The position numbers and the translations under genes were made by a program. From a virus (Duplodnaviria > Caudoviricetes), in the IMG/VR virus record IMGVR_UViG_3300017987_000091, positions 1 through 63,384 of that record: a stretch of 63,384 nucleotides of DNA; one strand, 5' to 3'. A model generated the notes under the pieces. The model made no database searches. It worked only from the letters and a program-made list of their open reading frames with translations, and was not told where the DNA came from. Of this stretch, positions 1 through 63,384 are shown piece after piece. Positions within the stretch are counted from its first letter, which is position 1. Each line of letters begins with the position of its first letter.

Positions 1-123
1 GGATCGTCCAGGTCGATCGTGGGGGGGGTGTGGTCGATCCCCTTGCCGTTGCCGTTCGCTGGGCCACGGGGGCCCCGTTCACGGGCACGCGAAAGCCACC
101 TGGACAGGAACTGGTCAGCAGAC
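1..123. repeat. Terminal direct repeat, copy 1 (circular-assembly overlap)
   Basis: Bases 1-123 are identical to 63262-63384, and an ORF reads through the junction. Confidence 0.95.
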
Positions 124-503
124 CTTCGGCCGCCGGTGCGGTGCTGGTTGTCTTCCATCCAGTTCAGCGCCTTGATCACTTCGGCCCGCACGTCCATGGC
201 GTCAGGCGTCAGCGCAATCTGGCGCCGACACCAGCCCACCGGATCCGCCATGTTGGCCGCGGTCCAGGGGTGGGCAGCCAGCAGCTGGTCCACGGGCAGC
301 TGCAGCAGCTTCGGCCAGTCCACCCCCTTCTGCGTCGCCTGGGAATAGGTCAGGGGCTTCCTGCGCTTCGCCTTGGCCTTTGGCTTCTTTTCCTTCATGG
401 CTGCGACCACCGCGGCCGTGAACGGCCCCACTGCGCTGTTCCAGTCTTCAGCCGCCATGGCGTCGGCGAAGGCCTGCAGGTGTTCCTTTAGCTTGTCGCC
501 CAT
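1..503 (-). CDS. 5' part of an origin-spanning 179-aa putative replication initiator/helicase-loader-like protein (continues 63261-63225)
   Basis: ATG at 503 overlaps the UvrD stop. Translates MGDKLKEHLQAF...DVRAEVIKALNWMEDNQHRTGGRRSADQFLSRWLSRARER..., resembling the C-terminal domain of phage O-like initiators. Lies directly upstream of DnaB. Missing from the ORF track because it crosses the end. Confidence 0.6.
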   Translation of the reverse strand, partial: MGDKLKEHLQAFADAMAAEDWNSAVGPFTAAVVAAMKEKKPKAKAKRRKPLTYSQATQKGVDWPKLLQLPVDQLLAAHPWTAANMADPVGWCRRQIALTPDAMDVRAEVIKALNWMEDNQHRTGGRRSADQFLSRWLSRARERGPRGPANGNGKGIDHTPPTIDLDD

Positions 504-2269
504 CAGACAACCCCTTCCCAGGATCCCAGCCGGATCCCTGCGTCGGTCAGGTAGGGGGAAGGGTCCACCGCCTTCATCTTGCCCCACGGCATCAGCTGTT
601 CAGTGGGGACGGTCAGCAGCAGGCTGTCCCTGGCCCTGGTCACCCCCACGTAAAACACCCGGCGATCTTCGGCCCTGTCGTCGTCGTCGGCCGTCTTGCG
701 GTTCGTGGGGTAGATCCCGTCGTTGACGCCCACCAGGACGACGGCCGGCCATTCCAGTCCCTTCGCCCCGTGGACGGTGGACAGGGTGACGGCTTCGGCT
801 TCGTCGTCGCTGGCCTTGCGTTCCTGCACGCTGCGATCCGTCCACCATTCAATCCAGTCGGCCAGGGTGCGCACGTCTTCGGGGATCGCGTCGATCGCTT
901 CCTGGACAGCGCCATCAGGGGGACCACGGAAAACTGCAGCCATGGCCCCGGCAATGTCGATCACGTCGTCGCCTTCCATGTGGTGGGCCCGAAGCCCCTG
1001 GAAGTCTGACCAGGTGCCAGTCGGATCCTGTTCGGCCAGCACGTCCACGACGTGGCGCCGGCTGCTGGCGACTTCGATCCGCACGTCCCTGAAGTCACCG
1101 CACCGTGGGTTCCCGCCGTTGCCCCAGGCGTCCAGCCACCGGGCCAGGTTGATATCGCTGTGGTTGTGGTACAGCAGCAGGGCACGGGCCAGGGCACGGC
1201 CTTCGGTGGTTTCCCAGGGATCTTCTTCGGCGCCCAGGTACCGCACCGGGATCCCGGCGTCCTGCAGCAAGTCGCGGATCGGCACCAGGGCCTTCCACTG
1301 TCGCGCCAGGACGGCGACGGCCTGCGGTCCTTCGTGCAGGTCCACCAGGAATTCCACGGCCTTCGCCACCGCCGTGGGTTCGTCGTCCACCAGGTAGGCC
1401 GGCACGGGCCCCGGCATCACCTGTTCACGGTGGGCGCGCATCGGTTCAAAGGGGTGGGCCATGATGCCGTTGGCAGCGTCCACGATCGAAGGCTTCGATC
1501 TGTAGTTGTCCACCAGCTGGACCACCTGGAAGTCGGCGTCAGCCGCAGCTTCCAGGATGATCCCCACGTCGGCGCCCCTGAAGCGGTAGATCGATTGCCT
1601 GGGATCCCCGACCACGAAGAAGCTGATCGGCGTCAGGTGCTGGAAGATGGCCGCCTGGGCGAAGTTCGTGTCCTGGTATTCGTCCACCAGTATGTGCTGA
1701 TATCGCTGCTGCATGTCGTCGCGCACCTGGTCGTTGTCCTGCAGAAGCCCCAGCGCCAGGCCTTCCAGCTGATCGAAGTCCAGGGCGTTGGCTTGGGCCA
1801 GCCTGGCTTCGTATTCCTGCACCACCTGTTCCCGCCGGCGCAGCGTGCTGATCCTGCAGGTGTGGGGGTTGTCCACCGCCTTCAGATCCTGGGCGCACAC
1901 CCGCAGCAGATCGTCGCTGTCGCGCTGGTCGTAGATCGTGAAGGTGCTGGTGCGGTTCACGGCTTCGGGGTAGGCCCGCAGCAGCCTGGCACACCAGCTG
2001 TGTACCGTCCTGATTTCGGGCAAGTACCGCACGCTGGTGGCCTTCGCCACCCGTTCCCGCATTTCGGCGGCCGCGGCACGGGTGAAGGTGACGCACAGCA
2101 TGCGGGCAGCACTGACGCCACGTTCCAGCAACCTGGCCACCCGCGCCGTCAGCACCATGGTTTTGCCGGTGCCGGCGCCGGCGATGGTCAGGATCCTGGG
2201 GTGGTCGCTCATGATGGCCTGCAGCTGCCGTTCGTTGGCCTGCAGCTTCTGTTCGTTGTCCTGCTTCAT
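503..2269 (-). CDS. UvrD/PcrA/Rep-family SF1 DNA helicase
   Basis: Motifs AGAGTGKT, TFTRAAA, LVDEYQD, VGDPRQSIYRFRGA, NYRS, STVHGAKGLEW, FYVGVTRA. ATGA coupling places the start at 2269. Confidence 0.93.
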   Translation of the reverse strand: MKQDNEQKLQANERQLQAIMSDHPRILTIAGAGTGKTMVLTARVARLLERGVSAARMLCVTFTRAAAAEMRERVAKATSVRYLPEIRTVHSWCARLLRAYPEAVNRTSTFTIYDQRDSDDLLRVCAQDLKAVDNPHTCRISTLRRREQVVQEYEARLAQANALDFDQLEGLALGLLQDNDQVRDDMQQRYQHILVDEYQDTNFAQAAIFQHLTPISFFVVGDPRQSIYRFRGADVGIILEAAADADFQVVQLVDNYRSKPSIVDAANGIMAHPFEPMRAHREQVMPGPVPAYLVDDEPTAVAKAVEFLVDLHEGPQAVAVLARQWKALVPIRDLLQDAGIPVRYLGAEEDPWETTEGRALARALLLYHNHSDINLARWLDAWGNGGNPRCGDFRDVRIEVASSRRHVVDVLAEQDPTGTWSDFQGLRAHHMEGDDVIDIAGAMAAVFRGPPDGAVQEAIDAIPEDVRTLADWIEWWTDRSVQERKASDDEAEAVTLSTVHGAKGLEWPAVVLVGVNDGIYPTNRKTADDDDRAEDRRVFYVGVTRARDSLLLTVPTEQLMPWGKMKAVDPSPYLTDAGIRLGSWEGVV

Positions 2270-4284
2270 GGCTGCCCCCCCATCTGGTGCCAGTGCACCC
2301 CTTCGGGTGGTTGCCAGCCGTCGTCCACGCTGGCCAGCCAGCAGTCGTCCAGCAGGCCGTCGTTGCACATGGCCACCAGGGCCAGCACCAGGCCGTCCCT
2401 GCGCGGGGGAAGATCGGGGTGGTTGCTGGTCCTGTCCTTCGACAGCACTTCAAGGCCGTCGATCGCCAGGTGGCGCCAGCCGTCCAGCTTCGACAGGACC
2501 ACGGCCGCCACGATGGTGCTGATCACCACGGCGTGGCTTTCGCTGGCCGTTTCCAGGGGCACCTTCCCTTCTTCGATCGTGGGACGGCTGTACCCCAGGG
2601 ACAGTCCACCGTCAGCATCGAACCAGATCGTGGACCCTGTGATCGGCTTCAGGTAGTGGTTCACCTGGCCCACCAGGGGGCCGAAGGCGTCAGCAAGGAT
2701 CCGGCCCAGCAGGCCCTTGGGCCCCAGATCCCGCAGCAGATCCCTGATTTCGTCGCGCTTGTCCACCGCGTCGTCCAGTTCCTTCTGATGCTTCAGGCGT
2801 TCCGCCACGGCGGCCGCGTTGTCGGTCAGGGTGTCGGCGTTCAGGATGGCCTGGGCCTTTTCGGTGCGCAGTCCTTCCAGCTGCGCGGCGATCCCTTCGT
2901 CGGCCAGGTTGTCGGGAAGGGCCAGCAGTTCGCCCCGCTTCGTGTCCAGTTCGCTCACCAGGCGTTCCACTTCGGCCAGCTTGGCTTCGGCGTCGGCCAG
3001 GGCCTGGGCGTGCTGCTTCGGCAGTTCGTCCAGCTTGGCTTCGGCCCTGGTGGCCTTCGCCTGGACTTCCCGCGCCACCTTCGCCGGGTGCTGCATCAGC
3101 CGGTGGGACGCTTCTTCCTTCGTCTTCGCGGCCTTCACTTCGTCCTGGGCTTTCACCAGGTCGGCCTGCAGGGTGTCGGCCCAGGCGTTCATCTGGTCCA
3201 GCAGCGCCGGATCCTTCAAGGCGTCGCAGGCCTTGTCTGGGATCAGGGGGCACTGGCCACCACCATGCTGCACCCGTTCGATCCGCTGCTGGTGTTCATC
3301 GATCTGGGCCTGGATGGTGTCCACGGCCGCTTCGGCCGCGGTGGTGCGGTCATGCGCCAGGGTGTTGTTCCCCCTGGCTTCCAGCTTCTTGTCGGTGGCT
3401 TCCTTCAGTTCCTTGTCCAGTTCGGCCACGTCGGCCTTCAGCTGCTTCAGTTCGGCCGCCTGGTCCTTCTTCATCGCTTCCAGGTCCACGTCCTGGCCCT
3501 GCTGGATCAGCTGTTCAAGATCGGCGATCCGCGCCTTGATAGCGTCGCGGCCTTGGGCTGCCCCTTCGGCCTGTCCCTGCTGCTGCGCAAGCTGTTCGAT
3601 CTGCTTGTCCAGTTCGTCGCCCTTCGCGCGCCAGCTGGCCACGGTCCCCGGCGGCAGATCCACGGCGGCCGCTTCCTTTTCGTCGTGGGCCACCACCTTG
3701 TGCAGCCTGTTGGCGTCGCGGTTCACCGCCTTGTCTTCGGCCTTCAGGGTGTCCAGGTAGGCCACCAGCCGTTCCCTGGTAATTTCAACATCAGGGGGCA
3801 CGATCTCCGATCCCATGATGTGGTTGATCCTGGCCACGTAGGGGGCCACCTGCTGGCGAAAGTCGCGTCCCTGGCTGTCCAGGATGTTGGCTTCCAGCCA
3901 TTCCAGCCGTGCCGCCGGCGTCATGCCCAGCAGCTGCTGAAACGACCACCCGAAGGCTTCCCCCACCAGGTTGTCCACCAGCGGCTGCACGTTGCGCGGG
4001 GTGCCCCGTTCACCGTTCAGCGCCAGGGTGTGCTTCCCCCGCTTCACCTGGCGGTCCACCAGGGTGCCGTCGTCGTACTTCAGCACCACCTGGAAACGGT
4101 CAGGGGACTGCCCCAGCAGCACGAACTTGCTGACCGGCGCCGGCGTCACCGCCAGCCTGGGAAGGGACAGCAGGCTGGTTTTGCCTGCTTCGTTCGGGCC
4201 GGTGATCACCACCACGGGGCATTCAGGTGCCAGGTGGTAGTTGCGGCCGAAGATCTGGGACGCTTCCACGTTGGCGATCTTCAT
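2266..4284 (-). CDS. Rad50/SbcC/SMC-like coiled-coil ATPase
   Basis: Walker A GPNEAGKT, long coiled coil with a central Cys pair (CPLIPDKAC), degenerate signature (LETASES), Walker B-like HLAIDG. Confidence 0.8.
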   Translation of the reverse strand: MKIANVEASQIFGRNYHLAPECPVVVITGPNEAGKTSLLSLPRLAVTPAPVSKFVLLGQSPDRFQVVLKYDDGTLVDRQVKRGKHTLALNGERGTPRNVQPLVDNLVGEAFGWSFQQLLGMTPAARLEWLEANILDSQGRDFRQQVAPYVARINHIMGSEIVPPDVEITRERLVAYLDTLKAEDKAVNRDANRLHKVVAHDEKEAAAVDLPPGTVASWRAKGDELDKQIEQLAQQQGQAEGAAQGRDAIKARIADLEQLIQQGQDVDLEAMKKDQAAELKQLKADVAELDKELKEATDKKLEARGNNTLAHDRTTAAEAAVDTIQAQIDEHQQRIERVQHGGGQCPLIPDKACDALKDPALLDQMNAWADTLQADLVKAQDEVKAAKTKEEASHRLMQHPAKVAREVQAKATRAEAKLDELPKQHAQALADAEAKLAEVERLVSELDTKRGELLALPDNLADEGIAAQLEGLRTEKAQAILNADTLTDNAAAVAERLKHQKELDDAVDKRDEIRDLLRDLGPKGLLGRILADAFGPLVGQVNHYLKPITGSTIWFDADGGLSLGYSRPTIEEGKVPLETASESHAVVISTIVAAVVLSKLDGWRHLAIDGLEVLSKDRTSNHPDLPPRRDGLVLALVAMCNDGLLDDCWLASVDDGWQPPEGVHWHQMGGQP

Positions 4285-5597
4285 TCCGCACCCCCTTCCA
4301 CCAGGTCGTCCAGGCCCTGTTCCTGCAGATCCTTTTTGATGGTCCACAGTTCTTCCGTGGTGTTGTTCCTGGGGTCGTAGTCCAGGGCGTTGGCCTGGTC
4401 AGCGTTCACGTGCTGCAGCGCCGTGTCGATCCACGCGATCAGGGCGTTGCGTTCCGCCTGGTCGTCGTCCAGTTCGGCGTCTTCGGGCACCGGGCGGCCC
4501 TGCAGATCTTCGGGATCCTGGTCGGCCAGCGGGGCGTCGTGCACGGTGGGATCGTATTCTTCGGCCGCTTCGATCACTTCAAAGCCTTCATCCTTCAATG
4601 GAATCCCGCGTGCGATCTTTTCGCTGATCTGCTGCATCTTGTGCAGCGCACGGGCATCACCGGCCCAGCCGATCACGTCCACGTCGGCCACGCCGTAGGC
4701 GTCTTCCCCTTCCCCCGCCGGCGTCACCACCACCGACTTGAACTGACCGATCGCCGGGTGCTGCAGCAGGGCGTTCCTGCGGGCCACGGTGATCGCCTTC
4801 TTCGGGGCGTTCTGCAGCAGCTGGATAAAGTCGCCGTAGGCGTTCCTGATTTCGGCGTGGCGAAGGTCCACCAGGTACCCCACCCCACCATACAGTTCCA
4901 CGAACTTGCGGCCGGCCTGGATGCCGCCGGCCACTTCGTCCTTGCTGACCAGCTTGCAGTGTTCGAACACCTCGCTGGATTCCATGGGCCGCTTGCCGTC
5001 CTTCTTGCCGCGGTGGCCGCAGCTGGCGATCGTGTGCAGCATGTGCAGGAAGTCCTTGCGGGGGTCGTAGTCCAGTGTGTACTGCACGATCACGGGGTTG
5101 CCGGTGGCCGGGGTGGGGCCCACCACGTCCACGGCGATCACGATCCGTTCGATCCCGCCGTCTTCGGTCCTGGCAATGTAGGGGTTGGTGCGGGGCTTGC
5201 CGTCCACCACGACGCTGGGGGGCTGCCCGATGGCGCAGCCGGCCACGCTGTTGATCTTCTGGATCCCCTGCATGGTCAGGCTGCTGACCGTCTTGCCCAT
5301 TTCCCACAGGTGAAACAGATCCTTGCTTTCTTCGGACAGGTGGATCTTGGCCTTCACCGCCAGCAGATCGCCGGCGGGGGTGTGCCGCACGAAGGCTTCC
5401 CCCCGTCCCAGGATCGCGGTGTTTTCCTTGCGCACCGCGATGGCCATGGACGCGATCACGTCCAGGGCCTGGTCGGTGTCGCCCTTTGCGATGGCCAGGG
5501 CCCGTTCCACCAGGCCCTTGCGGTCACCGGCGAACAGGGCCCGTTCCAGGCTGGTGTCGCCGGGGCTGCGCTTTACAGGTAAGTTCGTGTTTGCCAT
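4281..5597 (-). CDS. Hypothetical protein with acidic C-terminus (possible recombination/annealing protein)
   Basis: Long ORF with GGAG RBS, coupled to the SMC-like gene. Function inferred from position only. Confidence 0.6.
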   Translation of the reverse strand: MANTNLPVKRSPGDTSLERALFAGDRKGLVERALAIAKGDTDQALDVIASMAIAVRKENTAILGRGEAFVRHTPAGDLLAVKAKIHLSEESKDLFHLWEMGKTVSSLTMQGIQKINSVAGCAIGQPPSVVVDGKPRTNPYIARTEDGGIERIVIAVDVVGPTPATGNPVIVQYTLDYDPRKDFLHMLHTIASCGHRGKKDGKRPMESSEVFEHCKLVSKDEVAGGIQAGRKFVELYGGVGYLVDLRHAEIRNAYGDFIQLLQNAPKKAITVARRNALLQHPAIGQFKSVVVTPAGEGEDAYGVADVDVIGWAGDARALHKMQQISEKIARGIPLKDEGFEVIEAAEEYDPTVHDAPLADQDPEDLQGRPVPEDAELDDDQAERNALIAWIDTALQHVNADQANALDYDPRNNTTEELWTIKKDLQEQGLDDLVEGGAE

Positions 5598-5650
5598 GAT
5601 TGTCACTCCAGTGCTGGGCCGTCACCTGGCCCAGTAAGGTCTATTGAAAG

Positions 5651-5688
5651 GCGCCCCCCCGCACCACGCGGGGGGGGCGTCGCTTTTT
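5651..5688. terminator. GC-rich hairpin, likely intrinsic (possibly bidirectional) terminator
   Basis: gcgcccccccgc...gcggggggggcgt stem, with a T-tract on + and TTTC on -. Confidence 0.55.
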
Positions 5689-5965
5689 ATTCCTCAAAAT
5701 ATTCCGCTTCCTTGAAGTTCAAAAACTGGGCGATGGCGTGCACCACCGCGATGTCCAGGGATTCGGCGCCAAGCAGCCGGGAAGCAGCCATGGGGGTGAT
5801 CTGCAGGTGCTGCGCCAGGTCGGTCAGGGTGACCCCTTCCCGTTCCATCTGCTTGTACACCCGCAGCTTGAAGTCCTTGATCGTCCCCATGGCCACGGTT
5901 CTGGTCACGTACACCAGCGGGGGGCCCGCTGTCGGCTTCCTTCCCGTGCGCTTCCCGGTGCCCAT
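5687..5965 (-). CDS. Small HTH (Cro/XRE-like) DNA-binding protein
   Basis: MEREGVTLTDLAQHLQITPMAASRLL HTH-like pattern. Confidence 0.65.
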   Translation of the reverse strand: MGTGKRTGRKPTAGPPLVYVTRTVAMGTIKDFKLRVYKQMEREGVTLTDLAQHLQITPMAASRLLGAESLDIAVVHAIAQFLNFKEAEYFEE

Positions 5966-5983
5966 CGCTTCACCCCTTTCCAG

Positions 5984-7147
5984 TTAGAAGGCCATCTGCA
6001 GCAGCTTGCCGGCGGCCTTGTCCTTCTTCACCCTGTTGTCGGTGTGGTCCACCTGCTGGGACTGTTCCGTCAGGCCGTTGACCATCCCCCACAGGGTGGT
6101 CGGTGCGCCGTACTGATCTTCGCTGCGTTCGGCGATCTGGTAGGCGCCCACCAGTTCCTTCTGCGTCACGTCCACCCGGCGCTTCCTGGCCATGCCCAGC
6201 AGCTGTTCCACCACTTCGTCCTTCGTCCCCCCCAGGGTGTACCGCTGGGCGGCCTGGATCTTGGCCTGCATGTCGCTGGCGCTGCTGTCGGCGTACCGCT
6301 TCAGTTCCACCTGGATCTGCTGGAAGGCCCGTTCGTCGGCGTCGCCCACGTGGCGGATCCGCATTTCGTGGACGCCGTGCGCCCCCCAAACAATGTGGTT
6401 CTGGCACACCGTCTTGAACAGGAACGCCATGATCCCGAAGCTGCTGGCGCCCACTTCGCTGTTCCAGCAGAAGAAGCCCCGGAACAGGCCGCCGTCGCTG
6501 CCGTCTTCGATCCGGCTGTCGCTGATCATGAACACGAACATGTCATGGTCAGAAGCGTAGATCCCCGAAGGCCCGATCAGCTGGCCAGGTCGCACCTGGG
6601 ATCCCTGCATGCAGTCGTCCACCGTGGCGATCCTGGCGTCCTTGGTGCCGTTGGGAACCGGCGACGCCGGCGGCACGCGCCAGCCGTGCAGGTTCATCAG
6701 GCGCTGCCCCACTTCGTAGTTCCAGATCCTGGTGTACTTGCTGGACGTGATGGCCCGCAGCAGGGGGCCGCTGCCGTTCCCGCTGTGAAACAGCAGGCTG
6801 GGCCAGTCGTCGGGGTTGGCGTCATGCTGCGGCCGGTGCTTCAGGCCCCAGTTCAGGTTCTGGGCCGCCAAGGTCGGCGACAGCTTGCGCAGGTACGACG
6901 CCGGCGCCTGGGCCCTGCTGCACAGCTGGCCCATGGACCAGTGCGTAAGGCGCGCGGGCATGCCCAGCCGGCCCAGCAGCTGCAGTTCGTCGCCCACGGG
7001 TTCCACCCGCAGATCGCTGAAGCGGATCCGGGATTCCCTGGCCTGTTCACGGTAGGCCGTGCAGGCCCGTGTCATGTCCTGCAGTGTCCAGAACCGCTCG
7101 TCAGGCGGCCGCGTCGCCCACTGGTTGCTTGCCTTGAATAGTTCCAT
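5984..7147 (-). CDS. DUF932-family protein
   Basis: WATRPPDERF, YASDHDMFVF, FRGFFCWNSEVG and VCQNHIVWG motifs. Confidence 0.75.
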   Translation of the reverse strand: MELFKASNQWATRPPDERFWTLQDMTRACTAYREQARESRIRFSDLRVEPVGDELQLLGRLGMPARLTHWSMGQLCSRAQAPASYLRKLSPTLAAQNLNWGLKHRPQHDANPDDWPSLLFHSGNGSGPLLRAITSSKYTRIWNYEVGQRLMNLHGWRVPPASPVPNGTKDARIATVDDCMQGSQVRPGQLIGPSGIYASDHDMFVFMISDSRIEDGSDGGLFRGFFCWNSEVGASSFGIMAFLFKTVCQNHIVWGAHGVHEMRIRHVGDADERAFQQIQVELKRYADSSASDMQAKIQAAQRYTLGGTKDEVVEQLLGMARKRRVDVTQKELVGAYQIAERSEDQYGAPTTLWGMVNGLTEQSQQVDHTDNRVKKDKAAGKLLQMAF

Positions 7148-7232
7148 GGTTCGTTCCTTCCTTGATCAACCGTGGGAAACGGGCCCAACGGTGATCAGCT
7201 GGTGCCAGGTTCACCCTGGCGCGGTTGCGGTG

Positions 7233-7568: not shown

Positions 7569-7675
7569 GGTGCTGTCCCTTCGTGGCCGTCCAGGTAGTG
7601 GTCCAGAACCAGCAAGCCGTCCCAGCACCAGGGCCAGGACGACAAGCTGGAAGGTGATGGTGCGCTGGGGGGCCA

Positions 7676-8551: not shown

Positions 8552-8648
8552 GGCTTCGTTCTCCCTTGCCTACCGTGGGTTTCCGGGCCCAACGGTGGCC
8601 GTTGGTGGGGCATGCGCCCCGGTTGGCGATCCTAAAGATCACCCGCAC

Positions 8649-8678
8649 GTTATACCATCCAGCGTTATAACGCAACAG
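8649..8678 (-). promoter_or_regulatory. Candidate early promoter (extended -10 TGnTATAAC) with palindromic operator
   Basis: Minus strand reads tgttgcgttataacgctggatggtataac. Perfect palindrome GCGTTATAACGC at 8662-8673. Intergenic, ahead of the early/replication block. Confidence 0.6.
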
Positions 8679-8710: not shown

Positions 8711-9445
8711 CTACTGGTCGCCGGCGTCGTGGCCCTGGTGGTCCAGCAGCGCCATCAGGGGATCGCCACCGTCCCCCACCAGGTTCGTCCAGGCATCGAA
8801 CCGGCGCCAGAACACCTCGGCAGCTTCGGCCGTCACCTTCACGGATCGGCCGGCCATCTTCAGGATCGTCATCTTCGGGCCGGGGCCCCGGCTGCGCTGG
8901 TGCTTTTCCGGTGGTGGTTGTTCCTTGGTTTCGTTGATCAGGGGATCGACGCCCAGCGCGTTCATGTCGAAGTCCAGGGACGCCACCAGGTCGTCCAGCT
9001 GCTGCTGATCCCAGGGGAACGTCGTGGCCAGATCTTCGGTGGTGAAGGTCGGCGTTAGGTCGTCGCGCAGCAGTTCGGCCACCTTGATCGCGTCGCTGTC
9101 GAAGCGGTTTTCGTTGAGCTCCATTGCACGGCGGATCGCTTCGGCCCTGCTGATCTTCCCGGCATTGATCACCAGCACCTGGTCCCAGCCCAGATCCCGC
9201 AGGCTGTCCACCCTGTGGTTGCCGTCGAAGACTTCCAGCCGGGGGCCGTCGTCGGTGTCCACTTCCCGCACGTTCAGAACCTGCAGCTGGCCGGATCGGC
9301 GCAGGCTGCCGGTCAGCTTCCTGGCCTTCACGGCGTCGTCGGTTTTGTAGTTCCAGGGGGCCTTCACCAGCTGGCTGACGGGCACCACCTGCAGGGTGCC
9401 TTTGATGTCCAGATCCTTCAGGCCGTTGATCTTTTCTTGTTTCAT
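8711..9445 (-). CDS. ParB/Srx N-terminal-domain protein in the DNA-modification operon
   Basis: VPVSQLVKAPWNYK...VFDGNHRV ParB-like motif, immediately downstream of dpdA. Confidence 0.8.
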   Translation of the reverse strand: MKQEKINGLKDLDIKGTLQVVPVSQLVKAPWNYKTDDAVKARKLTGSLRRSGQLQVLNVREVDTDDGPRLEVFDGNHRVDSLRDLGWDQVLVINAGKISRAEAIRRAMELNENRFDSDAIKVAELLRDDLTPTFTTEDLATTFPWDQQQLDDLVASLDFDMNALGVDPLINETKEQPPPEKHQRSRGPGPKMTILKMAGRSVKVTAEAAEVFWRRFDAWTNLVGDGGDPLMALLDHQGHDAGDQ

Positions 9446-9449
9446 TGTT

Positions 9450-10331
9450 TCACCATTCCACCCCACGGGCAGCCCATAGATCCGTCAGGTATTTTTCATA
9501 TTTCAGGATCTGCTTGAAGGTGTACACACGGCGGGCAATGTATCCCCGCATCCTGGTCCCCGGCACCCTTCTGGCGATCTTGTCGGCCAGCCAGGGCATG
9601 CCTTCGGCGATGGCAGCCTGGATCTGGGAAATGCGCGACATGGTGATCAGCCTGACCGGGGGCCCCGGTTCGAACCGCATGGCGTGCCCCCAGGCCGGCC
9701 CCAGCACGGGGAAGGACCAGTCTGCTGAATGGTAGGGGTAGGCCATCAGGCGCGACGGCACAAAGCTGCCGAAGCAGTGCACCTTCACCTGGGGCCAGTC
9801 GCGCAGCACTTCCCAGGCCTTCCCTTCCCACCGCAGCGTTGCTTCAGCTGCTGGCTGAATGGCCATTCCCCCCAGTGCGATCCGTTGGTGCCCAGCGTTC
9901 AGCTGTCGCTTCAGGACGGCCATGGGCGCCCCGACGTGGGCCACCGGCAGCGGGTGCAGTCCTTCGGCTTCCATGGCCTTCTGATTTCGTGCCGTGGCCA
10001 CGTGGTTCCCGATCACGTCCAGGACGGCGTACACCGCGATCCTGGACTTGAACCCGTGAAGGAACCGGCAGTAGCTGGCCAGGTTGATCGTGGCCCCGGT
10101 GGTCGCTGCGGTGAAGGCCCCCGAATCCATGAACAGTTCACCCCGCGGCCGCGGCAGCAGTTCGCTGCTGTATTCCCCAGGGATGCCGGCCCAGAAGCTG
10201 AAGTCCCCGCAGTGCGGGCCGCCGGCGACGCAGTAGGGGAAGGACCGCAGGATCCTGGTGGCGCCCAGGTCGTTGTACAAGTCGCCTTCTATGGCGCAGT
10301 TCAGGCTTCTGCCGGCCAGGTACAGCTTCAC
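9450..10331 (-). CDS. dpdA: DpdA-like (TGT-fold) DNA 7-deazaguanine transglycosylase
   Basis: FMDSGAFT, LDVIG, PVAH, ALGGM, VHCFG and SADWS TGT-like motifs. GTG start coupled to the folE stop; clustered with que genes. Confidence 0.78.
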   Translation of the reverse strand: MKLYLAGRSLNCAIEGDLYNDLGATRILRSFPYCVAGGPHCGDFSFWAGIPGEYSSELLPRPRGELFMDSGAFTAATTGATINLASYCRFLHGFKSRIAVYAVLDVIGNHVATARNQKAMEAEGLHPLPVAHVGAPMAVLKRQLNAGHQRIALGGMAIQPAAEATLRWEGKAWEVLRDWPQVKVHCFGSFVPSRLMAYPYHSADWSFPVLGPAWGHAMRFEPGPPVRLITMSRISQIQAAIAEGMPWLADKIARRVPGTRMRGYIARRVYTFKQILKYEKYLTDLWAARGVEW

Positions 10332-10963
10332 CTGGTGACACCCCCGGCCAGCTGCAGGAATTCGGCCCTGGCTTCTGGCACGTCGCGCAGTGCGCCCAGC
10401 ATGGCGCTGGTGGTCATGGTCACCCCGGCCTTCTTGATCCCCCTGCATTCAATGCAATCGTGGGTTGCCGTCAGGATCACCCCGACGCCCAGCGGTTCCA
10501 GGTGGTTCTGCATCGCGTCGGCCACCTGCTTCGTGATCCGTTCCTGGATCTGCAGCCGCTTGCTGAAGCAGTCCACCAGCCGGGGGATCTTCGACAGGCC
10601 GACGCAGCGGCCGCCGGCGGGAATGTACCCCACGGCAGCGACGCCGGCGAACGGCATCAGGTGGTGTTCACATGTGCTGCTGAAGGGGATGTTGGCGACG
10701 ACGATCAGCTGGTCGTAGCCTTCGGTTTCGCCGAAGGTGCTGGACAGGATCTGCGCGGGATCTTCCCAGTAGCCGGCCGTCCTTTCGTTCCAGGCGCCGG
10801 CGACGCGATCAGGGGTACCCCGCAGGCCTTCCCGGTTCGGATCTTCCCCGGTAGCTTCCAGCAGCAGCCTGGCGGCCCTTGTCATCTTCGTGAACCTGGC
10901 ATGCCCTTCGGCGATGCCCAGGCCGGCGGTGGGGTAGTACGGCACGTTTCGATCTTCGCCCAT
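10328..10963 (-). CDS. folE: GTP cyclohydrolase I
   Basis: REGLRGTPDRVA, STCEHHLMPF, GLSKIPRLV, RLQIQERIT, HDCIECRG. Confidence 0.96.
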   Translation of the reverse strand: MGEDRNVPYYPTAGLGIAEGHARFTKMTRAARLLLEATGEDPNREGLRGTPDRVAGAWNERTAGYWEDPAQILSSTFGETEGYDQLIVVANIPFSSTCEHHLMPFAGVAAVGYIPAGGRCVGLSKIPRLVDCFSKRLQIQERITKQVADAMQNHLEPLGVGVILTATHDCIECRGIKKAGVTMTTSAMLGALRDVPEARAEFLQLAGGVTR

Positions 10964-11619
10964 CACTTCCACCCCAGCAGCTTCTGCAGCTGCACCGACA
11001 GCGACCAGCCGGGGTTCCTTTCCAGCCAGTCCTGCAGTTCCCGCAGCATTTCCTTGCTGCAGATCGCGGCACCGCTGCACAGCATAGGCTGGATCGACAG
11101 GTCGCCCACGTCGGCAGCCCACGGCCCCAGCACGTCGGTGGGATCGCCACCCCAGGGCGTCGGCCACAGCACCTTGATTTCGTTGATCGGCAGCTTCGGC
11201 GCTTCCAGCACCTTCGGCGACCAGGTGATCCAGCGCCTGAAGTCTTCGTTGAGCTCCACCAGCAGCCTGTCGTCCTTCGGCGCCACGTGGCCGTTGGTTT
11301 CAATCTGAACCAGGGCCAGTTTGTCCCAGCGGTCCAGGGCGTCCAGCAGTTCGGCGTCCACCTGCAGCATCGGTTCCCCGCTGGTCAGGACCAGGTGGCG
11401 CACCTGGCGATCGTTCAGGTGGGCTTCGTAGTCGATCCGCTCCACCAGGGCGTCGTTGTCCAGCACAAGGTGCGCGTCTTCGTGCTGTGGGGTGTCGCAG
11501 AAGCTGCAGTCCTGATCGCACCCGCTGAACCGAACGAACACCGCCGGCGTGCCGGCGAACGTCCCTTCCCCCTGCAGGCTGGTGAAGACTTCGTGCACGT
11601 CGTACATGGGCCCCGTCAT
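10963..11619 (-). CDS. queE: 7-carboxy-7-deazaguanine synthase (radical SAM)
   Basis: EVFTSLQGEG, FVRFSGCDQDCSFCDT (CxxxCxxC), SGEPML, IETNG, SPK, LSVQLQK. Confidence 0.95.
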   Translation of the reverse strand: MTGPMYDVHEVFTSLQGEGTFAGTPAVFVRFSGCDQDCSFCDTPQHEDAHLVLDNDALVERIDYEAHLNDRQVRHLVLTSGEPMLQVDAELLDALDRWDKLALVQIETNGHVAPKDDRLLVELNEDFRRWITWSPKVLEAPKLPINEIKVLWPTPWGGDPTDVLGPWAADVGDLSIQPMLCSGAAICSKEMLRELQDWLERNPGWSLSVQLQKLLGWK

Positions 11620-11966
11620 GGCTGCCACCTGACCACCGATCCGGCGCTTTCTTCCACTTCCACCATGGTCACCCGGTTCCCGGTTCCTTCCAGCCAGGCG
11701 CCCACCGTTTCGACTGCCACGAATTCGGCCAGCCGTTCGGCCGTGGGCTTCTTCAGGATCTTGTTCAGGTCGGTGTGGTCCAGGCCCATCAGCTCCCCCT
11801 TGATCGCGGTGAAGTCCACCAGCATGTCCTTCACCAGCTGGCTGCCCTGGACTTCCACCGTGATGCGCCAGCGGTGCCCGTGGGGGTGTCGGCATGGTCC
11901 AGGGTGATCAGGTAGGTGGTGGGCCGCTTCAATCTCCACCGTCTTGCGAATCGTCCAGGTCGGCAT
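11616..11966 (-). CDS. queD: 6-carboxytetrahydropterin synthase
   Basis: AAHHL...CRHPHGH, LDHTDLN, PTAERLA, VEVEES. Confidence 0.95.
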   Translation of the reverse strand: MPTWTIRKTVEIEAAHHLPDHPGPCRHPHGHRWRITVEVQGSQLVKDMLVDFTAIKGELMGLDHTDLNKILKKPTAERLAEFVAVETVGAWLEGTGNRVTMVEVEESAGSVVRWQP

Positions 11967-12103: not shown

Positions 12104-12142
12104 ATTGTAGGGCAAGCCTTGCCAGGTGGGAAGTGGATCCAC
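12104..12142 (-). promoter_or_regulatory. Candidate que/dpd operon promoter with palindromic operator
   Basis: Minus strand GTGGATCCAC-TTCCCA-N17-TACAAT. Confidence 0.55.
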
Positions 12143-12149
12143 CATAATG

Positions 12150-12460
12150 AATCCGGCCCCAGCGATCCAGGTGGACCGAAGGGGCCGGAAACAGCTGTCA
12201 AACTGTTGGCCTCAATCTAGCCTACCTGGGCCGATCCGGTCAACTTTCCTAGCTGTTTCAATGACATATGCCCACCAGTTACAGGGCCTTGCGTTTGGGC
12301 TGTGCTGGCTGGTGGGGTCGCTGTTCCAAGCGATGCGCCATGTGGGCGAAGCTGCTGCAGCCCGGTTCGCCGGGAAGGCCTGCAGCCCTGGTTTGCGCCA
12401 GGTCCACAGCTGGGGAACGCACGAACAAGGCGTGCGGCCTGCAGGCACCTATTCAAGTAC
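12150..12460. ncRNA. Candidate structured non-coding region
   Basis: Part of a ~600-bp gap between divergent genes, with many stems (tccggcccc/ggggccgga, gaaacagct/agctgtttc, gctgcag/ctgcagc, cgcacg/cgtgcg). Confidence 0.3.
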
Positions 12461-12563
12461 ACCATTGCCCGGTGGGACTTGGGAGTCAGGAACAGGGACT
12501 GGTTGCCCTATTCGTGGCCTTGGCCCGGAAAGAATAGACAGGGTAAAGGAACTTGGTGTGCCC

Positions 12564-12992
12564 ATGGGTTGGAAGGTTGACAAGCGCCTGCTGATGTGGC
12601 GTGAACTGGTGGGGAAACGGGATCGCTGGACGTGCGCGATCTGCGGCCGGAAACGTGGCGAAATCACGATCTGCGTTCATCATGTATGGCCGGCCTACAG
12701 GTACCCCGAACTGCGGTACAGGAAAGGGAACGGGATCTGCATGTGCAGGGGGTGCCACGAAGCCTTCCACCGCCAGTTCGGCGCATCCAAGGCCACCCCC
12801 CGACACCTGGAACGGTTCGCCATCGAACAGGGTGCCAGCACCGCGTTCCTTCTGCGGATCCCGTTGCCGGCCAAGCGCCGGCGAAAACCATGCAAAAAAC
12901 CCCAGAAGCCGAAGCTGACACCAGAACAGCGGTGGTTGCTTGCTGAACAGAAACGAAACGATCGGGAAGCGAAAAAACGCTGGGATATCTGA
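12564..12992 (+). CDS. HNH endonuclease
   Basis: RDRWTCAICG...VHHVWP...NGICMCRGCHEAFH. Confidence 0.88.
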   Translation: MGWKVDKRLLMWRELVGKRDRWTCAICGRKRGEITICVHHVWPAYRYPELRYRKGNGICMCRGCHEAFHRQFGASKATPRHLERFAIEQGASTAFLLRIPLPAKRRRKPCKKPQKPKLTPEQRWLLAEQKRNDREAKKRWDI

Positions 12993-37122: not shown

Positions 37123-37140
37123 GGTATTGCTCCTTTCGGC

Positions 37141-47615: not shown

Positions 47616-47625
47616 CGTCGCCGTC

Positions 47626-48908: not shown

Positions 48909-48986
48909 TGGTGACCCTAACGGGATTTGAACCCGTGTTGCCGGGATGAAAACCCGGTGTCCTGGACCTGGCTGGACGATAGGGTC
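48909..48986 (-). tRNA. tRNA-Glu (anticodon TTC)
   Basis: Acceptor GACCCTA/TAGGGTC + A + CCA; anticodon stem CCGGG/CCCGG with loop TTTTCAT; T-arm ACGGG-TTCAAAT-CCCGT. Confidence 0.93.
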
Positions 48987-57611: not shown

Positions 57612-57856
57612 ATGCTTTCCCCTTTCAACCAGGGGTTGTCTTCCCTGGCGCGGTTCACCTTGCGGGCCACGTCTTCCAGGTGGTCCTTCAGGTCGTTGCT
57701 GTGGTGCAGGATCCCCAGTTCGATCCCTTCATTGATCGCTTCCAGGTATCTGCGGTGCCACTTGCCCAGCTGCACGAACTGCGACAGCGGGCCCTGTTTC
57801 TGCGTCAGCTTCATGGCGATCCCTGCGGGCATGTCCTTGTCCTTTCGCTTCGTCAT
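57596..57856 (-). CDS. Hypothetical protein
   Basis: ATGA coupled to the MTase stop. Confidence 0.55.
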   Translation of the reverse strand: MTKRKDKDMPAGIAMKLTQKQGPLSQFVQLGKWHRRYLEAINEGIELGILHHSNDLKDHLEDVARKVNRAREDNPWLKGESIWPKE

Positions 57857-58521
57857 TGGTTGTTCAGGCGCACGATCGACGCGCGCACTTCTTCCCCTGC
57901 GGTGCTGGGGCATTCCAGGCCGCAGCAGTCCCAGCCAGGCCGATCGCGCCTGGCGAATAGCTCGAGGTATGGCCCCGGCAGCATGCGTTCCAGCTTGTCC
58001 TGCAGGGCTTCAGGCTTCACGCTGTGCTTCGTCGCCGGCGCGAACACCAGATCCCGTTCGGACTTGGTGCGCAGGTGCTGGTATATCGATCCCCGTGTGC
58101 CCACCAGCAGCAGTTCCTTGCAGGAACGGGCCAGCCGGCCCATGCCGAAGGCCATGCCGTCAGGCATCCAAAGATCGGGAAACCGCGCGGTTCCTGGGGT
58201 GTCGGCCACCTTGTCGGCCATCTGCCCCAGCCAGTCCCCCAGGCCCTTCGGTTTCCGCGTTTTTGCCCAGATCCACACCTGCTTGAAGTCGAAGCCCCAG
58301 CCGGCCAGGACGTGCAGGCCATCGGGGATCAGCGTCGCAGGGCACCACAGGGCTATCAGGGCGTCGTCCTGGGCCAAGGTGCCAACCTGCAGGGCAGCCA
58401 GTTCGGCGGTGGTCAGGGTGGCGTACTGAGCGGCCGCGCCACGCTTCACGCTGGTGGGGCTGTGGGCCAGCAAGTCGCCGAAGGCCCACGGCGGATCAGC
58501 TACGATCACGCGGTACTTCAT
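57853..58521 (-). CDS. MT-A70-family N6-adenine methyltransferase
   Basis: YRVIVADPPW, ALIALW, WGF...WIWAK, ELLLVGTRG, HSVKPE, YLELFARR. Confidence 0.9.
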   Translation of the reverse strand: MKYRVIVADPPWAFGDLLAHSPTSVKRGAAAQYATLTTAELAALQVGTLAQDDALIALWCPATLIPDGLHVLAGWGFDFKQVWIWAKTRKPKGLGDWLGQMADKVADTPGTARFPDLWMPDGMAFGMGRLARSCKELLLVGTRGSIYQHLRTKSERDLVFAPATKHSVKPEALQDKLERMLPGPYLELFARRDRPGWDCCGLECPSTAGEEVRASIVRLNNQ

Positions 58522-59213
58522 GACACCCCCCCCGGCCACTGTCGTGGACCGTCCAGGCCGGTGTTGGCCTTCACGAAGATCGGGCGTTCCAGGCGTTCCG
58601 CCACCTTCACCATCTTGTTCACCAGCTGCTGGTCAGGCTTCGGCGCCCCGGCCCCCGTCTGGGAACCGACGATCAGCCAGTCCAGGCCGGTCAGGTATTC
58701 ACGATCCACGGGCCCCCGGATCGGTTCCAGGGATACGAACCGCACCCCAGTCCCCGGCACCGACCACAGGACGCTGATGCGCCAGGCTTCGTCCATGGTG
58801 GTGACCGAAACCCCCAGCCAAACGTTGTCTGGGATCCGGCCGCCGGCGTCGTGCCAGTCCTGGATCTTGCTGGGGTTCTTCGTCAGTACAGCGAAGACGT
58901 GCTGGGGGCACTGTTCCGCCACGCTGAACACGTCGTTGATCCAGGTGAAGGGAACCCAGTGGCCGAACATGTCCCCCATGGAAACCGTGAACACGAACCC
59001 CGGCTGCTTCACCGTCGTGGGTTCCAGGATCCTGGTGGGGTGGAAGGTCGGTTCAAAGCCGGCTTCGTACCCCGGCACCCCCATGCCCTGCAGGCGCTTC
59101 GCGAAGGGCCTGGCGTAGCAGTAGCCGCACCCGTGCCGGCACCCTGTGATCGGGTTCCAGGTGTACCCCGTGCGGCCGGGGGCGTGCGTCCATTCGATCT
59201 TTGTGCGGTTCAC
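58518..59213 (-). CDS. DUF5131 (phage Gp37/Gp68) radical-SAM-like protein
   Basis: TKIEWT...WNPITGCRHGCGYCYA, SMGDMF, LTKNP, NVWLGVSV, FVSLEP, DWLIVG. Confidence 0.88.
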   Translation of the reverse strand: MNRTKIEWTHAPGRTGYTWNPITGCRHGCGYCYARPFAKRLQGMGVPGYEAGFEPTFHPTRILEPTTVKQPGFVFTVSMGDMFGHWVPFTWINDVFSVAEQCPQHVFAVLTKNPSKIQDWHDAGGRIPDNVWLGVSVTTMDEAWRISVLWSVPGTGVRFVSLEPIRGPVDREYLTGLDWLIVGSQTGAGAPKPDQQLVNKMVKVAERLERPIFVKANTGLDGPRQWPGGVS

Positions 59214-61936: not shown

Positions 61937-63228
61937 TATTCCGGCCCTTCTGCTGTGGTGAAGTTCCCGAAGGCCAGGTGCTGGCGCAGGAACGCATACC
62001 TGAACCCCATGTCAGCACGGCCGTCCCTGTTCTTGCGCACGGTGAACTTCCCCCAGTCGGTGTCCATGGTTTCCCTGGCCATCATCACCACCAGGTCGGC
62101 GTCGTTTTCCAGGTCGCCGGCCATGCGCAGGTGAGCCAGCGTCGGTTCCAGTACCCCCTGCGCCTGTCGGTTCAGGTGTGCCATCAGGATGGTGGCCACG
62201 TTGCATTCCACCGCGATCCTGCTGAATTCGTAGCTGGCCCGGTGGATCGTTTCCCGCTGCTGGTTTTCCCCGCGCACGCTGCGGTCCTTAACCTTGCCCA
62301 CCAGGTCCAGGAAGATGCCCTGCACCCCGTGTGTGTGTGTGATCGCCCTGGCCTTGCTGACCAGCCGGGGCAAGCTGGTGACGCGATCTTCCACGTAGAT
62401 CGGCAGCTTCGCGATGTCCCTGGACCAGATACACACTTCATCAGGATCGGCTTCCCGGCTGCGCAGATCGTCGGCCTTGATCGCCAGGCCGTCGTACCAC
62501 CGGCCCTGCAGCCAGGACAGCATGACGATCAGCCGCTGGTGGATCTGTTCCCAGGGGGATTCAAGGCTGAAATACGCCACGGGGATCCCGGCCAGCGCCA
62601 GCGTCAGCCCCAGGAACAGCCCCAGCGCAGTCTTGCCCATGCTGGGCCTGGCGCCGATCACCGTCTGGGCACCAAGGGGGATCCCCCCGATCCATTCTTC
62701 CCACCGCTGCAGCGGCACAGGTAGGAACTGGGGGCTTTTCCTGGTGTACTTTTCCCGCCACCGCTTGGCCCGCTGCTGCTGGTCGATCATGTCGGTGGTG
62801 GTCGGTTCCATGGAACGCTGCACAGCGCGCTGGGCGTCGGTCCATTCGTCGGGGTCGTCGCCGTCCATGCCCAGCAGTTCGCTGCAGGCCACCTTCACCC
62901 GTCGCTGGGCGGCCTTGCGCTGCACGATTTCCGAATAGTGCCGCGCCGAAATGGACGTGGCAGCAGCGCCGGCGACTTCGGCCAGGTACTGCAGGCCGCC
63001 GGCTTCGTCGATCTGCTTTTCGCCGATGGAGTCCAGCAGCAGTTCCAGTTCCACCGGCTTGCCGTTGGCCACCAGCCGGTTCATGGCCTTGAAGATCACC
63101 CGGTGCGCCGGCCTGTAGAAGTCTTCGGCTTCCAGGCCCAGGATGCGCACCAGGGTGGGATCGATGAAGAAGGCCCCCAGCACGCTGCGTTCAGCGTCCA
63201 GGGAATAGGGCAGCTTCAGTTCAGTCAT
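61936..63228 (-). CDS. dnaB: DnaB-like replicative helicase
   Basis: PYSLDAERSVLG, DFYRPAHRVIF, GARPSMGKT, FSLE, HLNR, LRMAGDLENDAD, KNRDG. Confidence 0.93.
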   Translation of the reverse strand: MTELKLPYSLDAERSVLGAFFIDPTLVRILGLEAEDFYRPAHRVIFKAMNRLVANGKPVELELLLDSIGEKQIDEAGGLQYLAEVAGAAATSISARHYSEIVQRKAAQRRVKVACSELLGMDGDDPDEWTDAQRAVQRSMEPTTTDMIDQQQRAKRWREKYTRKSPQFLPVPLQRWEEWIGGIPLGAQTVIGARPSMGKTALGLFLGLTLALAGIPVAYFSLESPWEQIHQRLIVMLSWLQGRWYDGLAIKADDLRSREADPDEVCIWSRDIAKLPIYVEDRVTSLPRLVSKARAITHTHGVQGIFLDLVGKVKDRSVRGENQQRETIHRASYEFSRIAVECNVATILMAHLNRQAQGVLEPTLAHLRMAGDLENDADLVVMMARETMDTDWGKFTVRKNRDGRADMGFRYAFLRQHLAFGNFTTAEGPE

Positions 63229-63384
63229 CTGCCACCGCCTTCCAGCTTCGCAGCCGCGTCAGGATCGTCCAGGTCGATCGTGGGGGGGGTGTGGTCGATC
63301 CCCTTGCCGTTGCCGTTCGCTGGGCCACGGGGGCCCCGTTCACGGGCACGCGAAAGCCACCTGGACAGGAACTGGTCAGCAGAC
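63225..63384 (-). CDS. 3' end of the origin-spanning initiator-like gene
   Basis: ...DLDDPDAAAKLEGGGR*; its TGA overlaps the DnaB ATG. Confidence 0.6.
   Translation of the reverse strand, partial: SADQFLSRWLSRARERGPRGPANGNGKGIDHTPPTIDLDDPDAAAKLEGGGR
63262..63384. repeat. Terminal direct repeat, copy 2
   Basis: Identical to 1-123. Confidence 0.95.

Follow-up and report, generated by a model that had tools for sequence, protein, structure and literature searches.

No anti-restriction strategy has been known for longer than the avoidance of motifs, which has been described for sites of 4-8 bp that need few changes. Here we describe an uncultured tailed phage in which the trinucleotide GAG and its complement CTC have been almost entirely purged from the genome. 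The sequence analysed, referred to below as the window, is the whole IMG/VR record IMGVR_UViG_3300017987_000091 with a length of 63,384 bp. The purge has in common with classical restriction-site avoidance (principle reviewed in PMC12707154) that the deficit of the word is strand-symmetric and goes beyond codon and Markov expectations. It differs in that the word is a 3-nt non-palindrome, as opposed to the often palindromic words of 4-8 bp, and in that about 1900 sites instead of a handful were removed, with 126 and not zero remaining. In the open-access literature searched we found no report of a purge of GAG/CTC or of another trinucleotide in phages. We regard the avoidance seen here as real and extreme and as a form that has not been described so far, for which a plausible but unproven cause can be named.

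In Bacteroides salyersiae, the bacteriophage exclusion (BREX) type 4 system places phosphorothioates at ACTC, CCTC and TCTC (0.2%, 17% and 4% of sites, respectively), and not at GCTC; a Dnd system acting at GAGC/GCTC is reported in the same paper, as is the marking of CCA by Ssp systems (PMC12914056). Type I BREX defence requires the recognition of unmodified sites in the phage DNA (PMC11842806). The mark of BREX type 4 is strand-specific and linked to defence, and the likeness to it lies in the CTC core with a degenerate 5' base from which G is excluded: a relative of the phage, represented by contigs L024 and L025, spares GCTC, and the window shows a weak trend in this direction. However, GCTC is strongly depleted too in the window and in an unrelated purged contig, L194. 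The system was published for a Bacteroides of the gut, whereas the phage originates from sediment and seawater metagenomes. A 3'-phosphoadenosine 5'-phosphosulfate (PAPS) reductase domain was not found in the window; one is encoded by L194.

Depletion of the protospacer adjacent motif (PAM) of CRISPR systems also concerns a non-palindromic word of very few letters, which becomes rarer on both strands while the benefit adds up from site to site, but the published effects are small, reaching a median log-ratio of about -0.59 (PMC4246573), compared to an observed/expected ratio (O/E) of 0.063 here. The chlorovirus enzymes Nt.CviQII (R^AG) and Nt.CviPII (^CCD) read non-palindromic trinucleotides, and GAG is contained in RAG (PMC3017599); as nicks are individually repairable, they would pose an additive hazard. 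Those enzymes are, in contrast, virus-encoded and paired with methyltransferases, and in the window AAG is enriched and GAGCTC is not specially avoided. Short non-palindromic marks containing CTC also exist in uncultured marine bacteria, exemplified by the N4-methylcytosine methyltransferase M.MspCM1200mP10I, although its motif CTCC has a 4-nt specificity and the enzyme is an orphan for which no restriction partner is reported in the available text (PMC8919816). This motif, GGAG/CTCC, is the least depleted NGAG context in the window. Phage 7-deazaguanine systems, which depend on DpdA, have a counterpart in the window in the form of a DpdA homologue, FolE and a QueE-like enzyme, but they constitute a modification system and not an effect on composition; in the literature searched, we found no report of a deazaguanine phage with a trinucleotide purge. 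A preliminary description of this sequence, made from the letters alone, had considered a 3-mer to be much shorter than typical restriction-avoidance signals and hence a possible mark of an uncharacterised defence or counter-defence system. The view that a 3-mer is without any known parallel needs to be softened, since the phosphorothioates of BREX type 4 at HCTC (H being A, C or T; PMC12914056) and nicking-modification systems with 3-nt specificity (PMC3017599) have been published.

Depletion of GAG/CTC on both strands

On the plus strand of the window, GAG is found 29 times and CTC 97 times, while 772 and 1210 occurrences, respectively, are expected from a first-order Markov model. With the strands pooled, 126 sites compare with 2010.4 expected (O/E 0.063, z = -42), so that the word is ca. 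16-fold rarer than expected, and the next-lowest trinucleotide, TAA/TTA, only reaches an O/E of 0.41. The preliminary description had reported that both words are absent from positions 1-2207 and scattered elsewhere. In agreement with this, the first site is the CTC at position 2208, with ~70 sites expected ahead of it, and the deficit is even more pronounced than described there.

All 16 NGAGN contexts show an O/E between 0.000 and 0.139, corresponding to an at least 7-fold depletion in each of them. Sorted by the 5' base, 2 of 321 expected sites were observed for AGAG, 24 of 573 for CGAG, 35 of 463 for TGAG and 65 of 653 for GGAG; sorted by the 3' base, the values are 28 of 653 for GAGG, 17 of 371 for GAGT, 26 of 360 for GAGA and 55 of 627 for GAGC. 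AGAG/CTCT has thus almost vanished, and GGAG shows the mildest depletion among the 5' contexts (O/E 0.10). Because every flanking context is affected, the minimal motif is the trinucleotide itself, as initially proposed, and a few sites of 4-6 bp do not explain the purge.

The depletion extends to both strands, all three reading frames and non-coding DNA. In the ~5.5 kb outside the called genes ca. 25 sites are found, many of which are Shine-Dalgarno sequences. The remaining sites are evenly distributed in a Poisson-like manner (per 3 kb, the mean is 5.95 and the variance 6.35), and the densest 500-bp windows hold at most 5 sites, compared to 15.9 expected without a purge. As no 500-bp window exceeds this number, the genome is free of unpurged islands that would have been imported recently. 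The gene of an HNH endonuclease, which lies on the opposite strand, is no exception to the purge and has just two sites, at 12211 and 12483.

Concerning the arrangement of the remaining sites, inverted pairs are not specially avoided: the palindrome GAGCTC occurs four times (Table 1) and CTCGAG once. Two of the four GAGCTC palindromes lie within an identical in-frame string, GAG-CTC-AAC-GAA. The plus strand carries the CTC orientation in 77% of the sites, with 61% expected (p = 1.7e-4), which in part stems from Shine-Dalgarno sites, while the orientations of neighbouring sites are as expected (84 compared to 80.7). A rule of spacing or orientation, such as Type III enzymes or a cooperatively binding agent would impose, was considered and dropped, the gaps being near-exponential except for adjacent pairs.

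Other words deviate from expectation as well. GAA/TTC, AAG/CTT and GAT are enriched, with O/E values of 1.79, 1.51 and 1.62, respectively. Several classical restriction sites, ACCGGT, AGCGCT, CCCGGG, GACGTC and GTCGAC, are missing altogether, each with 16-40 occurrences expected, and because of these zero counts site avoidance is taken as a general strategy of this phage. Further low palindromes are AAGCTT (2 observed, 31 expected) and ACGCGT (2 and 16), and low non-palindromes are CCTGCC/GGCAGG (0 and 46), CGGGAC (3 and 41), CGGAC (14 and 71) and CGGA/TCCG (230 and 610).

An assembly artefact as the source of the purge is ruled out because the same sequence recurs in several sequencing runs and studies. 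For positions 36001-46000, 100% of the sampled words were present in four metagenome runs (sediment 2018 and seawater 2021) from three studies, two of which are same-year sediment runs and could belong to one campaign; parts of this region were present in four further runs. When these four further runs were compared with positions 30001-50000, many pieces were identical to the window, next to fragments of ~90-96% identical relatives. No RNA was among the sequencing runs matching 36001-46000.

Synonymous recoding and selection on the DNA word

The phage has removed GAG/CTC by synonymous recoding of nearly all genes, leaving the proteins intact. Glutamate is encoded by GAA in 995 cases and by GAG in 50 (95% GAA), while other two-fold families remain G-ending, with 88% AAG for lysine and 91% CAG for glutamine. 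Only 11 of 1544 leucine codons are CTC, with CTG accounting for 83% and CTT for 8%. The reported preference for GAA and the avoidance of CTC by leucine are therefore confirmed by the counts. The codons alone do not describe the purge, as became evident from 200 synonymous-codon shuffles that preserve the codon usage of the genome. Off-frame GAG was observed 7 times in frame 1 and 20 times in frame 2, compared to 106 and 282 times in the shuffled sequences, and off-frame CTC 7 and 8 times, compared to 88 and 187. Together with the non-coding DNA, the shuffles agree with the earlier statement that the depletion acts on DNA and not on codons, and under both Markov and codon-shuffled nulls the abundance of the word stays far below expectation.

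Codon pairs are chosen against GAG/CTC at the junctions between codons. The serine codon depends on the last base of the preceding codon: after C, 405 AGY and 8 TCN codons are found, after G 13 AGY and 194 TCN codons. Among arginine codons, AGR accounts for 7 of the 432 that follow a G-ending codon and for 223 of the 567 that follow a C-ending codon. Likewise, only 7 of 1047 xGA codons stand ahead of a G-starting codon, and 7 of 1030 NCT codons ahead of a C-starting codon. The share of AGR among arginine codons is 39% after C-ending, 2% after G-ending and 7% after T-ending codons, and its rise after C is not accounted for by the avoidance of GAG/CTC. A thermophilic host had been considered because AGG makes up 19% of the arginine codons and some depleted words resemble the sites of Thermus enzymes. 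It was dropped because the use of AGR depends on the last base of the preceding codon; the proteome, moreover, looks mesophilic, with a fraction of the residues IVYWREL of 0.355 and an (E+K)/(Q+H) ratio of 1.48.

Ribosome-binding sites are mostly purine-rich, yet free of GAG. Of 69 upstream regions, 23 contain AGGG, 20 AAGG, 20 GGAA and 12 GGAG. GGAG is mainly kept ahead of highly expressed structural genes, including those of the capsid, cement, sheath and tube proteins (Table 1). The idea that all residual sites are Shine-Dalgarno sequences was dropped, as a called start follows at a distance of 3-14 nt in only 13 of 97 GAGs on the sense strand. A retention of GAG in order to avoid GAAC/GTTC was dropped as well, with an O/E of 0.96 for GAAC, and 84 GAA-CTG compared to 7 GAG-CTG pairs.

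The sole tRNA gene of the phage encodes a tRNA-Glu with the anticodon UUC, which reads GAA. It may compensate for the translational cost of a GAA-only glutamate if the host favours codons ending in G elsewhere. Alternatively, phage tRNAs may counter anticodon nucleases. In four runs, the region of this gene (48677-49343) showed a summed contig depth of 53-124x, compared to ~1-5x elsewhere; it carries many different flanks, which points to other organisms in these samples that have tRNA-Glu genes of similar sequence.

We conclude that the purge is genuine and is maintained by selection on the DNA word itself. That it acts at the level of DNA and not of codons follows from the depletion in both orientations, three frames and non-coding DNA. 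Without selection on the motif, the pattern would have to result from a context-specific mutation, e.g. by a CTC-preferring deaminase, from copying of the host composition, or from a sequencing or assembly artefact, which we consider hardly credible. It is true that the transition products of CTC, TTC/GAA and CTT/AAG, are the enriched words mentioned above. However, leucine CTC was mainly replaced by CTG, a transversion and the synonym preferred in translation, and not by CTT or TTC, which argues for selection and against a transition bias, and the switch between the AGY and TCN codons of serine needs two or three base changes per codon, which argues against mutation. In addition, the GGAG of ribosome-binding sites survives exactly where it is functional, the proteins are intact with strong family scores (UvrD 214 bits, FolE 216 bits, portal 180 bits), the same sequence was recovered in several runs and studies, and the host appears to lack the bias, judging from the G-ending lysine and glutamine codons and the phage's own tRNA-Glu(UUC).

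A supporting hint at an ongoing constraint against new sites comes from substitutions in the ~90-96% identical contigs. Of 40 rows considered, 37 were used and 3 rows inside the tRNA gene were dropped, because the depth there stems from other organisms; 274 further rows were not included. The 37 substitutions create no new GAG/CTC, while 12% of the possible substitutions in this stretch would do so and 4.4 are expected. The chance of finding none is 0.88^37, or ~0.009. The initial interpretation is partly supported, in that selection on a short motif fits the pattern better than a mutation bias.

Relatives and comparison contigs

For comparison, ca. 270 contigs were picked via the large terminase (TerL) and the family DUF5131. 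With the exception of L194, none of them has a comparable purge. In the TerL-related set, 164 of 182 loci (at least 3 kb) were used. Their O/E for GAG/CTC has a median of 0.92 and a minimum of 0.40, and the lowest value among 5140 pairs of locus and trinucleotide (expectation at least 40) is 0.18, for CAG/CTG in L135. The DUF5131-bearing IMG/VR contigs, 28 and 75 in two sets, gave values of 0.67-1.15 in 102 of 103 cases. A link of the purge to DUF5131 was therefore dropped, with 1 of 103 contigs purged.

The same word is purged in L194, a contig of 9.7 kb with 47% G+C, which shows 29 GAG/CTC sites compared to 243 expected (O/E 0.12) and a depletion in nearly all contexts. GAGC is not spared (6 observed, 65 expected). 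L194 is unrelated to the window, with a TerL identity of 23-25%. Other words depleted in L194 (positions 1-9702) are CCGG (0 observed, 76 expected), GATC (0 and 101) and CATG (2 and 61). Adjoining TerL, it encodes a DUF5131 protein, a peptide deformylase and a PAPS-reductase-domain protein. A link to the PAPS reductase was dropped, as L214, which carries the nearest relative of the L194 gene (64% identity), is unpurged and the window is without such a domain.

The nearest relative of the window in the head module is a single phage represented by L024 (1-9747) and L025 (1-12291), which are 99.98% identical over 5.3 kb. Its proteins share 39% (TerL), 37% (portal), 32% (Mu F), 48% (DUF2213), 36% (cement) and 40% (capsid) identity with those of the window. 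In L025, GAGA, GAGG and GAGT, corresponding to TCTC, CCTC and ACTC, have an O/E of ~0.2, while GAGC, corresponding to GCTC, has 0.79 (binomial p = 7e-21). The window shows a weak trend in the same direction, with an O/E of 0.088 for GCTC and 0.051 for HCTC (p = 0.004), GCTC being the least depleted 5' context of CTC. GATG/CATC is also strongly depleted in L024/L025 (0.14-0.19). Another relative, L023, has a TerL identity of 42%, a homologue of the adenine methyltransferase MT-A70 nearby and a GAG/CTC O/E of 0.89 over 4.6 kb. Hence, within one lineage the pressure ranges from none over HCTC only to every NCTC, and this variation among relatives fits the prediction of a host-specific agent.

The depletion of CAG/CTG in L135 and G001 was examined as a sister case and rejected, as it depends on context (0.016-0.96) and is the sum of ordinary sites of 4-5 bp. 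The record of L135, which also comprises L183-L185 (44,660 bp, 64% G+C), avoids multiple motifs: besides CAG/CTG with 0.18, the O/E is 0.10 for AGCT, 0.15 for GGCC, 0.16 for GATG, 0.17 for GGAG and 0.35 for GGA/TCC, and CTCGAG is absent with 116 expected. This complete record contains no TGT-family gene.

Candidate agents and gene content of the phage

We give an about even chance to the explanation that the phage avoids a host system which targets DNA, or marks self and non-self, and has a CTC/GAG core. Such a system would read the non-palindromic trinucleotide, and each unmarked site on incoming DNA would add a small and roughly additive risk, so that the loss of any single site would pay. 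Because 126 of about 2000 sites remain, one-hit killing is not the selective regime, and the hazard per site appears to be small and additive. The purge of the same word in the unrelated L194 supports this explanation, as does the strand-symmetric, context-independent depletion at the DNA level together with the recoding of codon pairs. Further points in its favour are the replacement of CTC by CTG, the missing classical restriction sites, the lack of new sites among the 37 substitutions, the variation among relatives, the precedent of BREX and the sole tRNA being tRNA-Glu(UUC). Of the published systems, BREX type 4 with its phosphorothioates comes closest. The narrower proposal that the agent is phosphorothioate-based and resembles BREX type 4 is tentative, its chances being well short of even.

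Several points weigh against an avoided host system of this kind. A system that kills at a single site offers no gain from a 16-fold cut in site number, and the low additive hazard per site is assumed. Phosphorothioate systems modify a minority of the host motifs and their sensing of non-self is poorly understood (PMC12914056). The preference for HCTC is clear only in L024/L025, while GCTC is still depleted 11-fold in the window and GAGC is low in L194 (6 of 65). The substitution test, finally, draws on 37 of 40 rows that are clustered on few contigs.

Two rival explanations also invoke the host. A CRISPR system of type I, II or V in the host population, with a GAG/CTC PAM, could have ratcheted the motif out of the genome by escape mutations, which would block both interference and spacer acquisition. 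The type I-E system of Escherichia coli tolerates GAG. PAMs are 2-5 nt long, non-palindromic and read on either strand, so that a strand-symmetric and nearly context-free depletion would result, the benefit per site is additive by nature, and PAM depletion in phages has been published (PMC4246573; PMC12174588). We nevertheless consider this origin unlikely: the largest published median log-ratio, ~-0.59 for Streptococcus phages and type I-C, corresponds to an at most ~2-fold effect in place of 16-fold (PMC4246573), and neither GAG nor CTC is among the PAMs discussed in the available text of PMC4246573 and PMC12174588. GAA/TTC and AAG/CTT, PAMs of types I-C and I-E (PMC4246573), are enriched here (1.79 and 1.51), and the split between HCTC and GCTC in L024/L025 suits a 4-nt marking motif equally well or better. 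Another host agent would be a large set of Type I restriction enzymes with GAG as the common half-site and differing second half-sites, and several such enzymes are known, as in GAG(N6)RTAYG, GAG(N7)GTCA and GAG(N7)ATGC (PMC12707154). As the targets are only those GAGs with a matching partner half-site, a context-free and near-complete purge demands extremely diverse partners, and mutation of the longer half-site would be equally useful and spare most GAGs; this explanation is extremely improbable.

The other two rivals place the cause in the phage itself. It is very unlikely that a phage-encoded cutter or nickase specific for GAG/CTC shreds the host DNA and spares a genome without sites. The 126 leftover sites, which amount to one in every ~500 bp, would remain open to cutting, GAGCTC, where a nick in each strand would lead to a double-strand break, occurs four times instead of the expected ~0.6, and no restriction-type nuclease was recognised among the ~60 open reading frames (ORFs) scanned. 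Virus-encoded nicking enzymes with 3-nt specificity do exist, Nt.CviPII at CCD and Nt.CviQII at RAG (PMC3017599), but they are paired with a protecting methyltransferase and not with a loss of sites; the genome of the phage does hold the opposite-strand HNH endonuclease and many proteins annotated without a function. Alternatively, the purge could reflect a clash with the phage's own modification, in which DpdA or the MT-A70/DUF5131 pair acts at or near GAG with a harmful product, which would either be attacked by a host nuclease of the modification-dependent type IV or constitute a lesion or an intermediate that has stalled, and the enzymes were kept while the sites were lost. The phage encodes DpdA with a ParB-like neighbour, FolE, a QueE-like enzyme and MT-A70 with DUF5131, and phage DpdA is reported to target the G in GA, a context within GAG (PMC10484667, PMC7544227). 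GAA and GAT, however, share the GA step and are enriched, and losing a modification gene would be a far shorter route than ~1900 substitutions. The connection to dpdA and MT-A70 raised in the preliminary description found no backing among the comparison contigs either: L023 has its MT-A70 homologue and is unpurged (O/E 0.89 over 4.6 kb), 102 of 103 DUF5131-bearing contigs are unpurged, and L194 is purged without a TGT-family match in its 9.7 kb, a contig that is 28% complete. We therefore regard a clash with the own modification as improbable.

Returning to a host system with a CTC/GAG core, it is possible, although we would not bet on it, that a recurrent and uncharacterised immunity or self-marking system reads this 3-nt core, perhaps by phosphorothioates, and that its small additive cost per site drove two or more phage lineages without relation to each other (with 63% and 47% G+C) to recode their whole genomes synonymously, one of which gained a tRNA-Glu(UUC) to meet the cost in translation. 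In the window, ~1900 sites or ~3% of the bases were edited out with the proteins untouched, and codon pairs, ribosome-binding sites and the tRNA were all bent to this end. This points to an agent that reads 3 nt and whose cost is graded by the number of sites, a regime that classical restriction does not provide. The second purged phage (L194) and the relative affected at HCTC only suggest that the pressure recurs in nature. The purge may thus offer a testable handle on short-motif systems such as the phosphorothioate BREX type 4, and trinucleotide statistics on metagenomic phages can reveal the specificities of host defences. If the explanation is true, trinucleotide O/E profiles of uncultured phages would be a readout of the specificity of unseen host defences.

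The features located in the window are compiled in Table 1. Gene starts are longest-ORF guesses, hence the coordinates of some neighbours overlap.

Table 1. Positions of the features discussed in the text, in order along the window
Feature	Position	Strand	Evidence or remark
Exact direct terminal repeat, 123 bp	1..123	+	second copy 63262-63384
ParB-like protein adjoining DpdA	8711..9466	-	PHROG 723, E 4.8e-22
GAGCTC palindromes	9116..9121, 11251, 33770, 42752		four in total, ~0.6 expected (maximal-order Markov)
DpdA-like DNA transglycosylase (7-deazaguanine insertion)	9450..10448	-	PHROG 887 queuine tRNA-ribosyltransferase, E 3.4e-26; start uncertain
GTP cyclohydrolase I (FolE)	10328..11167	-	PF01227, 216 bits
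QueE-like radical SAM enzyme	10963..11895	-	PF04055; TIGR04508 queE 78.7 bits, under the curated cut-off of 240
HNH endonuclease	12126..12992	+	PHROG 119; PF13391; opposite strand to most genes
Retained GGAG Shine-Dalgarno	37130..37132	-	7 nt upstream of the major capsid gene
Similar retained GGAG	38311, 33606, 32510, 31973, 20686, 44475, 23383, 22643, 18014, 15953/15956, 8561
tRNA-Glu, anticodon UUC	48909..48986	-	ARAGORN; Rfam tRNA 64.3 bits at 48912-48986
MT-A70 family DNA adenine methyltransferase	57853..58539	-	PF05063, 87 bits; PADLOC MTase_II, E 8e-42
DUF5131, radical-SAM-like partner adjoining MT-A70	58518..59213	-	PF07505, 165 bits; PADLOC PDC-M41B

The DpdA-like protein is ~30% identical to annotated phage DpdA; it has no match in NCBIfam or PADLOC. 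The neighbouring ParB-like protein is possibly an analogue of DpdB, by likeness to the role described for DpdB in PMC10164549. Of the genes of the preQ0 pathway, FolE is clear and QueE weak, and QueC and QueD were not recognised among the neighbouring and scanned ORFs. The ORFs flanking the cluster of DpdA, FolE and QueE, at 7233-8551 and 12996-14670 on the minus strand, gave no family match. The DUF5131 protein scores 85.9 bits with TIGR04471, below the cut-off.

The window is complete according to CheckV (100) and to its IMG/VR class of direct terminal repeats. It has a G+C content of 63.5%, and nearly all genes lie on the minus strand. Its relatives are distant: in a set of 5.8 billion proteins, the nearest homologue of TerL shares 46% identity with it, and the best one of an isolate phage 32%. 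Megablast of 20 kb and tblastn of the endolysin yielded no match in isolate phages, tblastn of TerL, DpdA, MT-A70 and capsid yielded distant matches with at most 33% identity, and scans of IMG/VR with the single proteins TerL, portal, DpdA and MT-A70 yielded none.

The phage is contractile-tailed. Recognised head genes encode TerL, portal, a Mu F-like protein, a DUF2213 protein, the cement protein and the major capsid protein, tail genes the sheath, a baseplate hub and baseplate J, and genes of replication and repair the helicases DnaB and UvrD, an SbcC-like protein and a RuvC-like resolvase. Within the head module, an ORF resembling Phd/YefM antitoxins (40397-40903; PF02604, 30.5 bits) lies on the opposite, plus strand. 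A 638-aa protein encoded at 51640-53556 on the minus strand contains a helix-hairpin-helix similar to the C-terminal domain of the RNA polymerase alpha subunit (PF03118) and shows weak LmuB-like matches.

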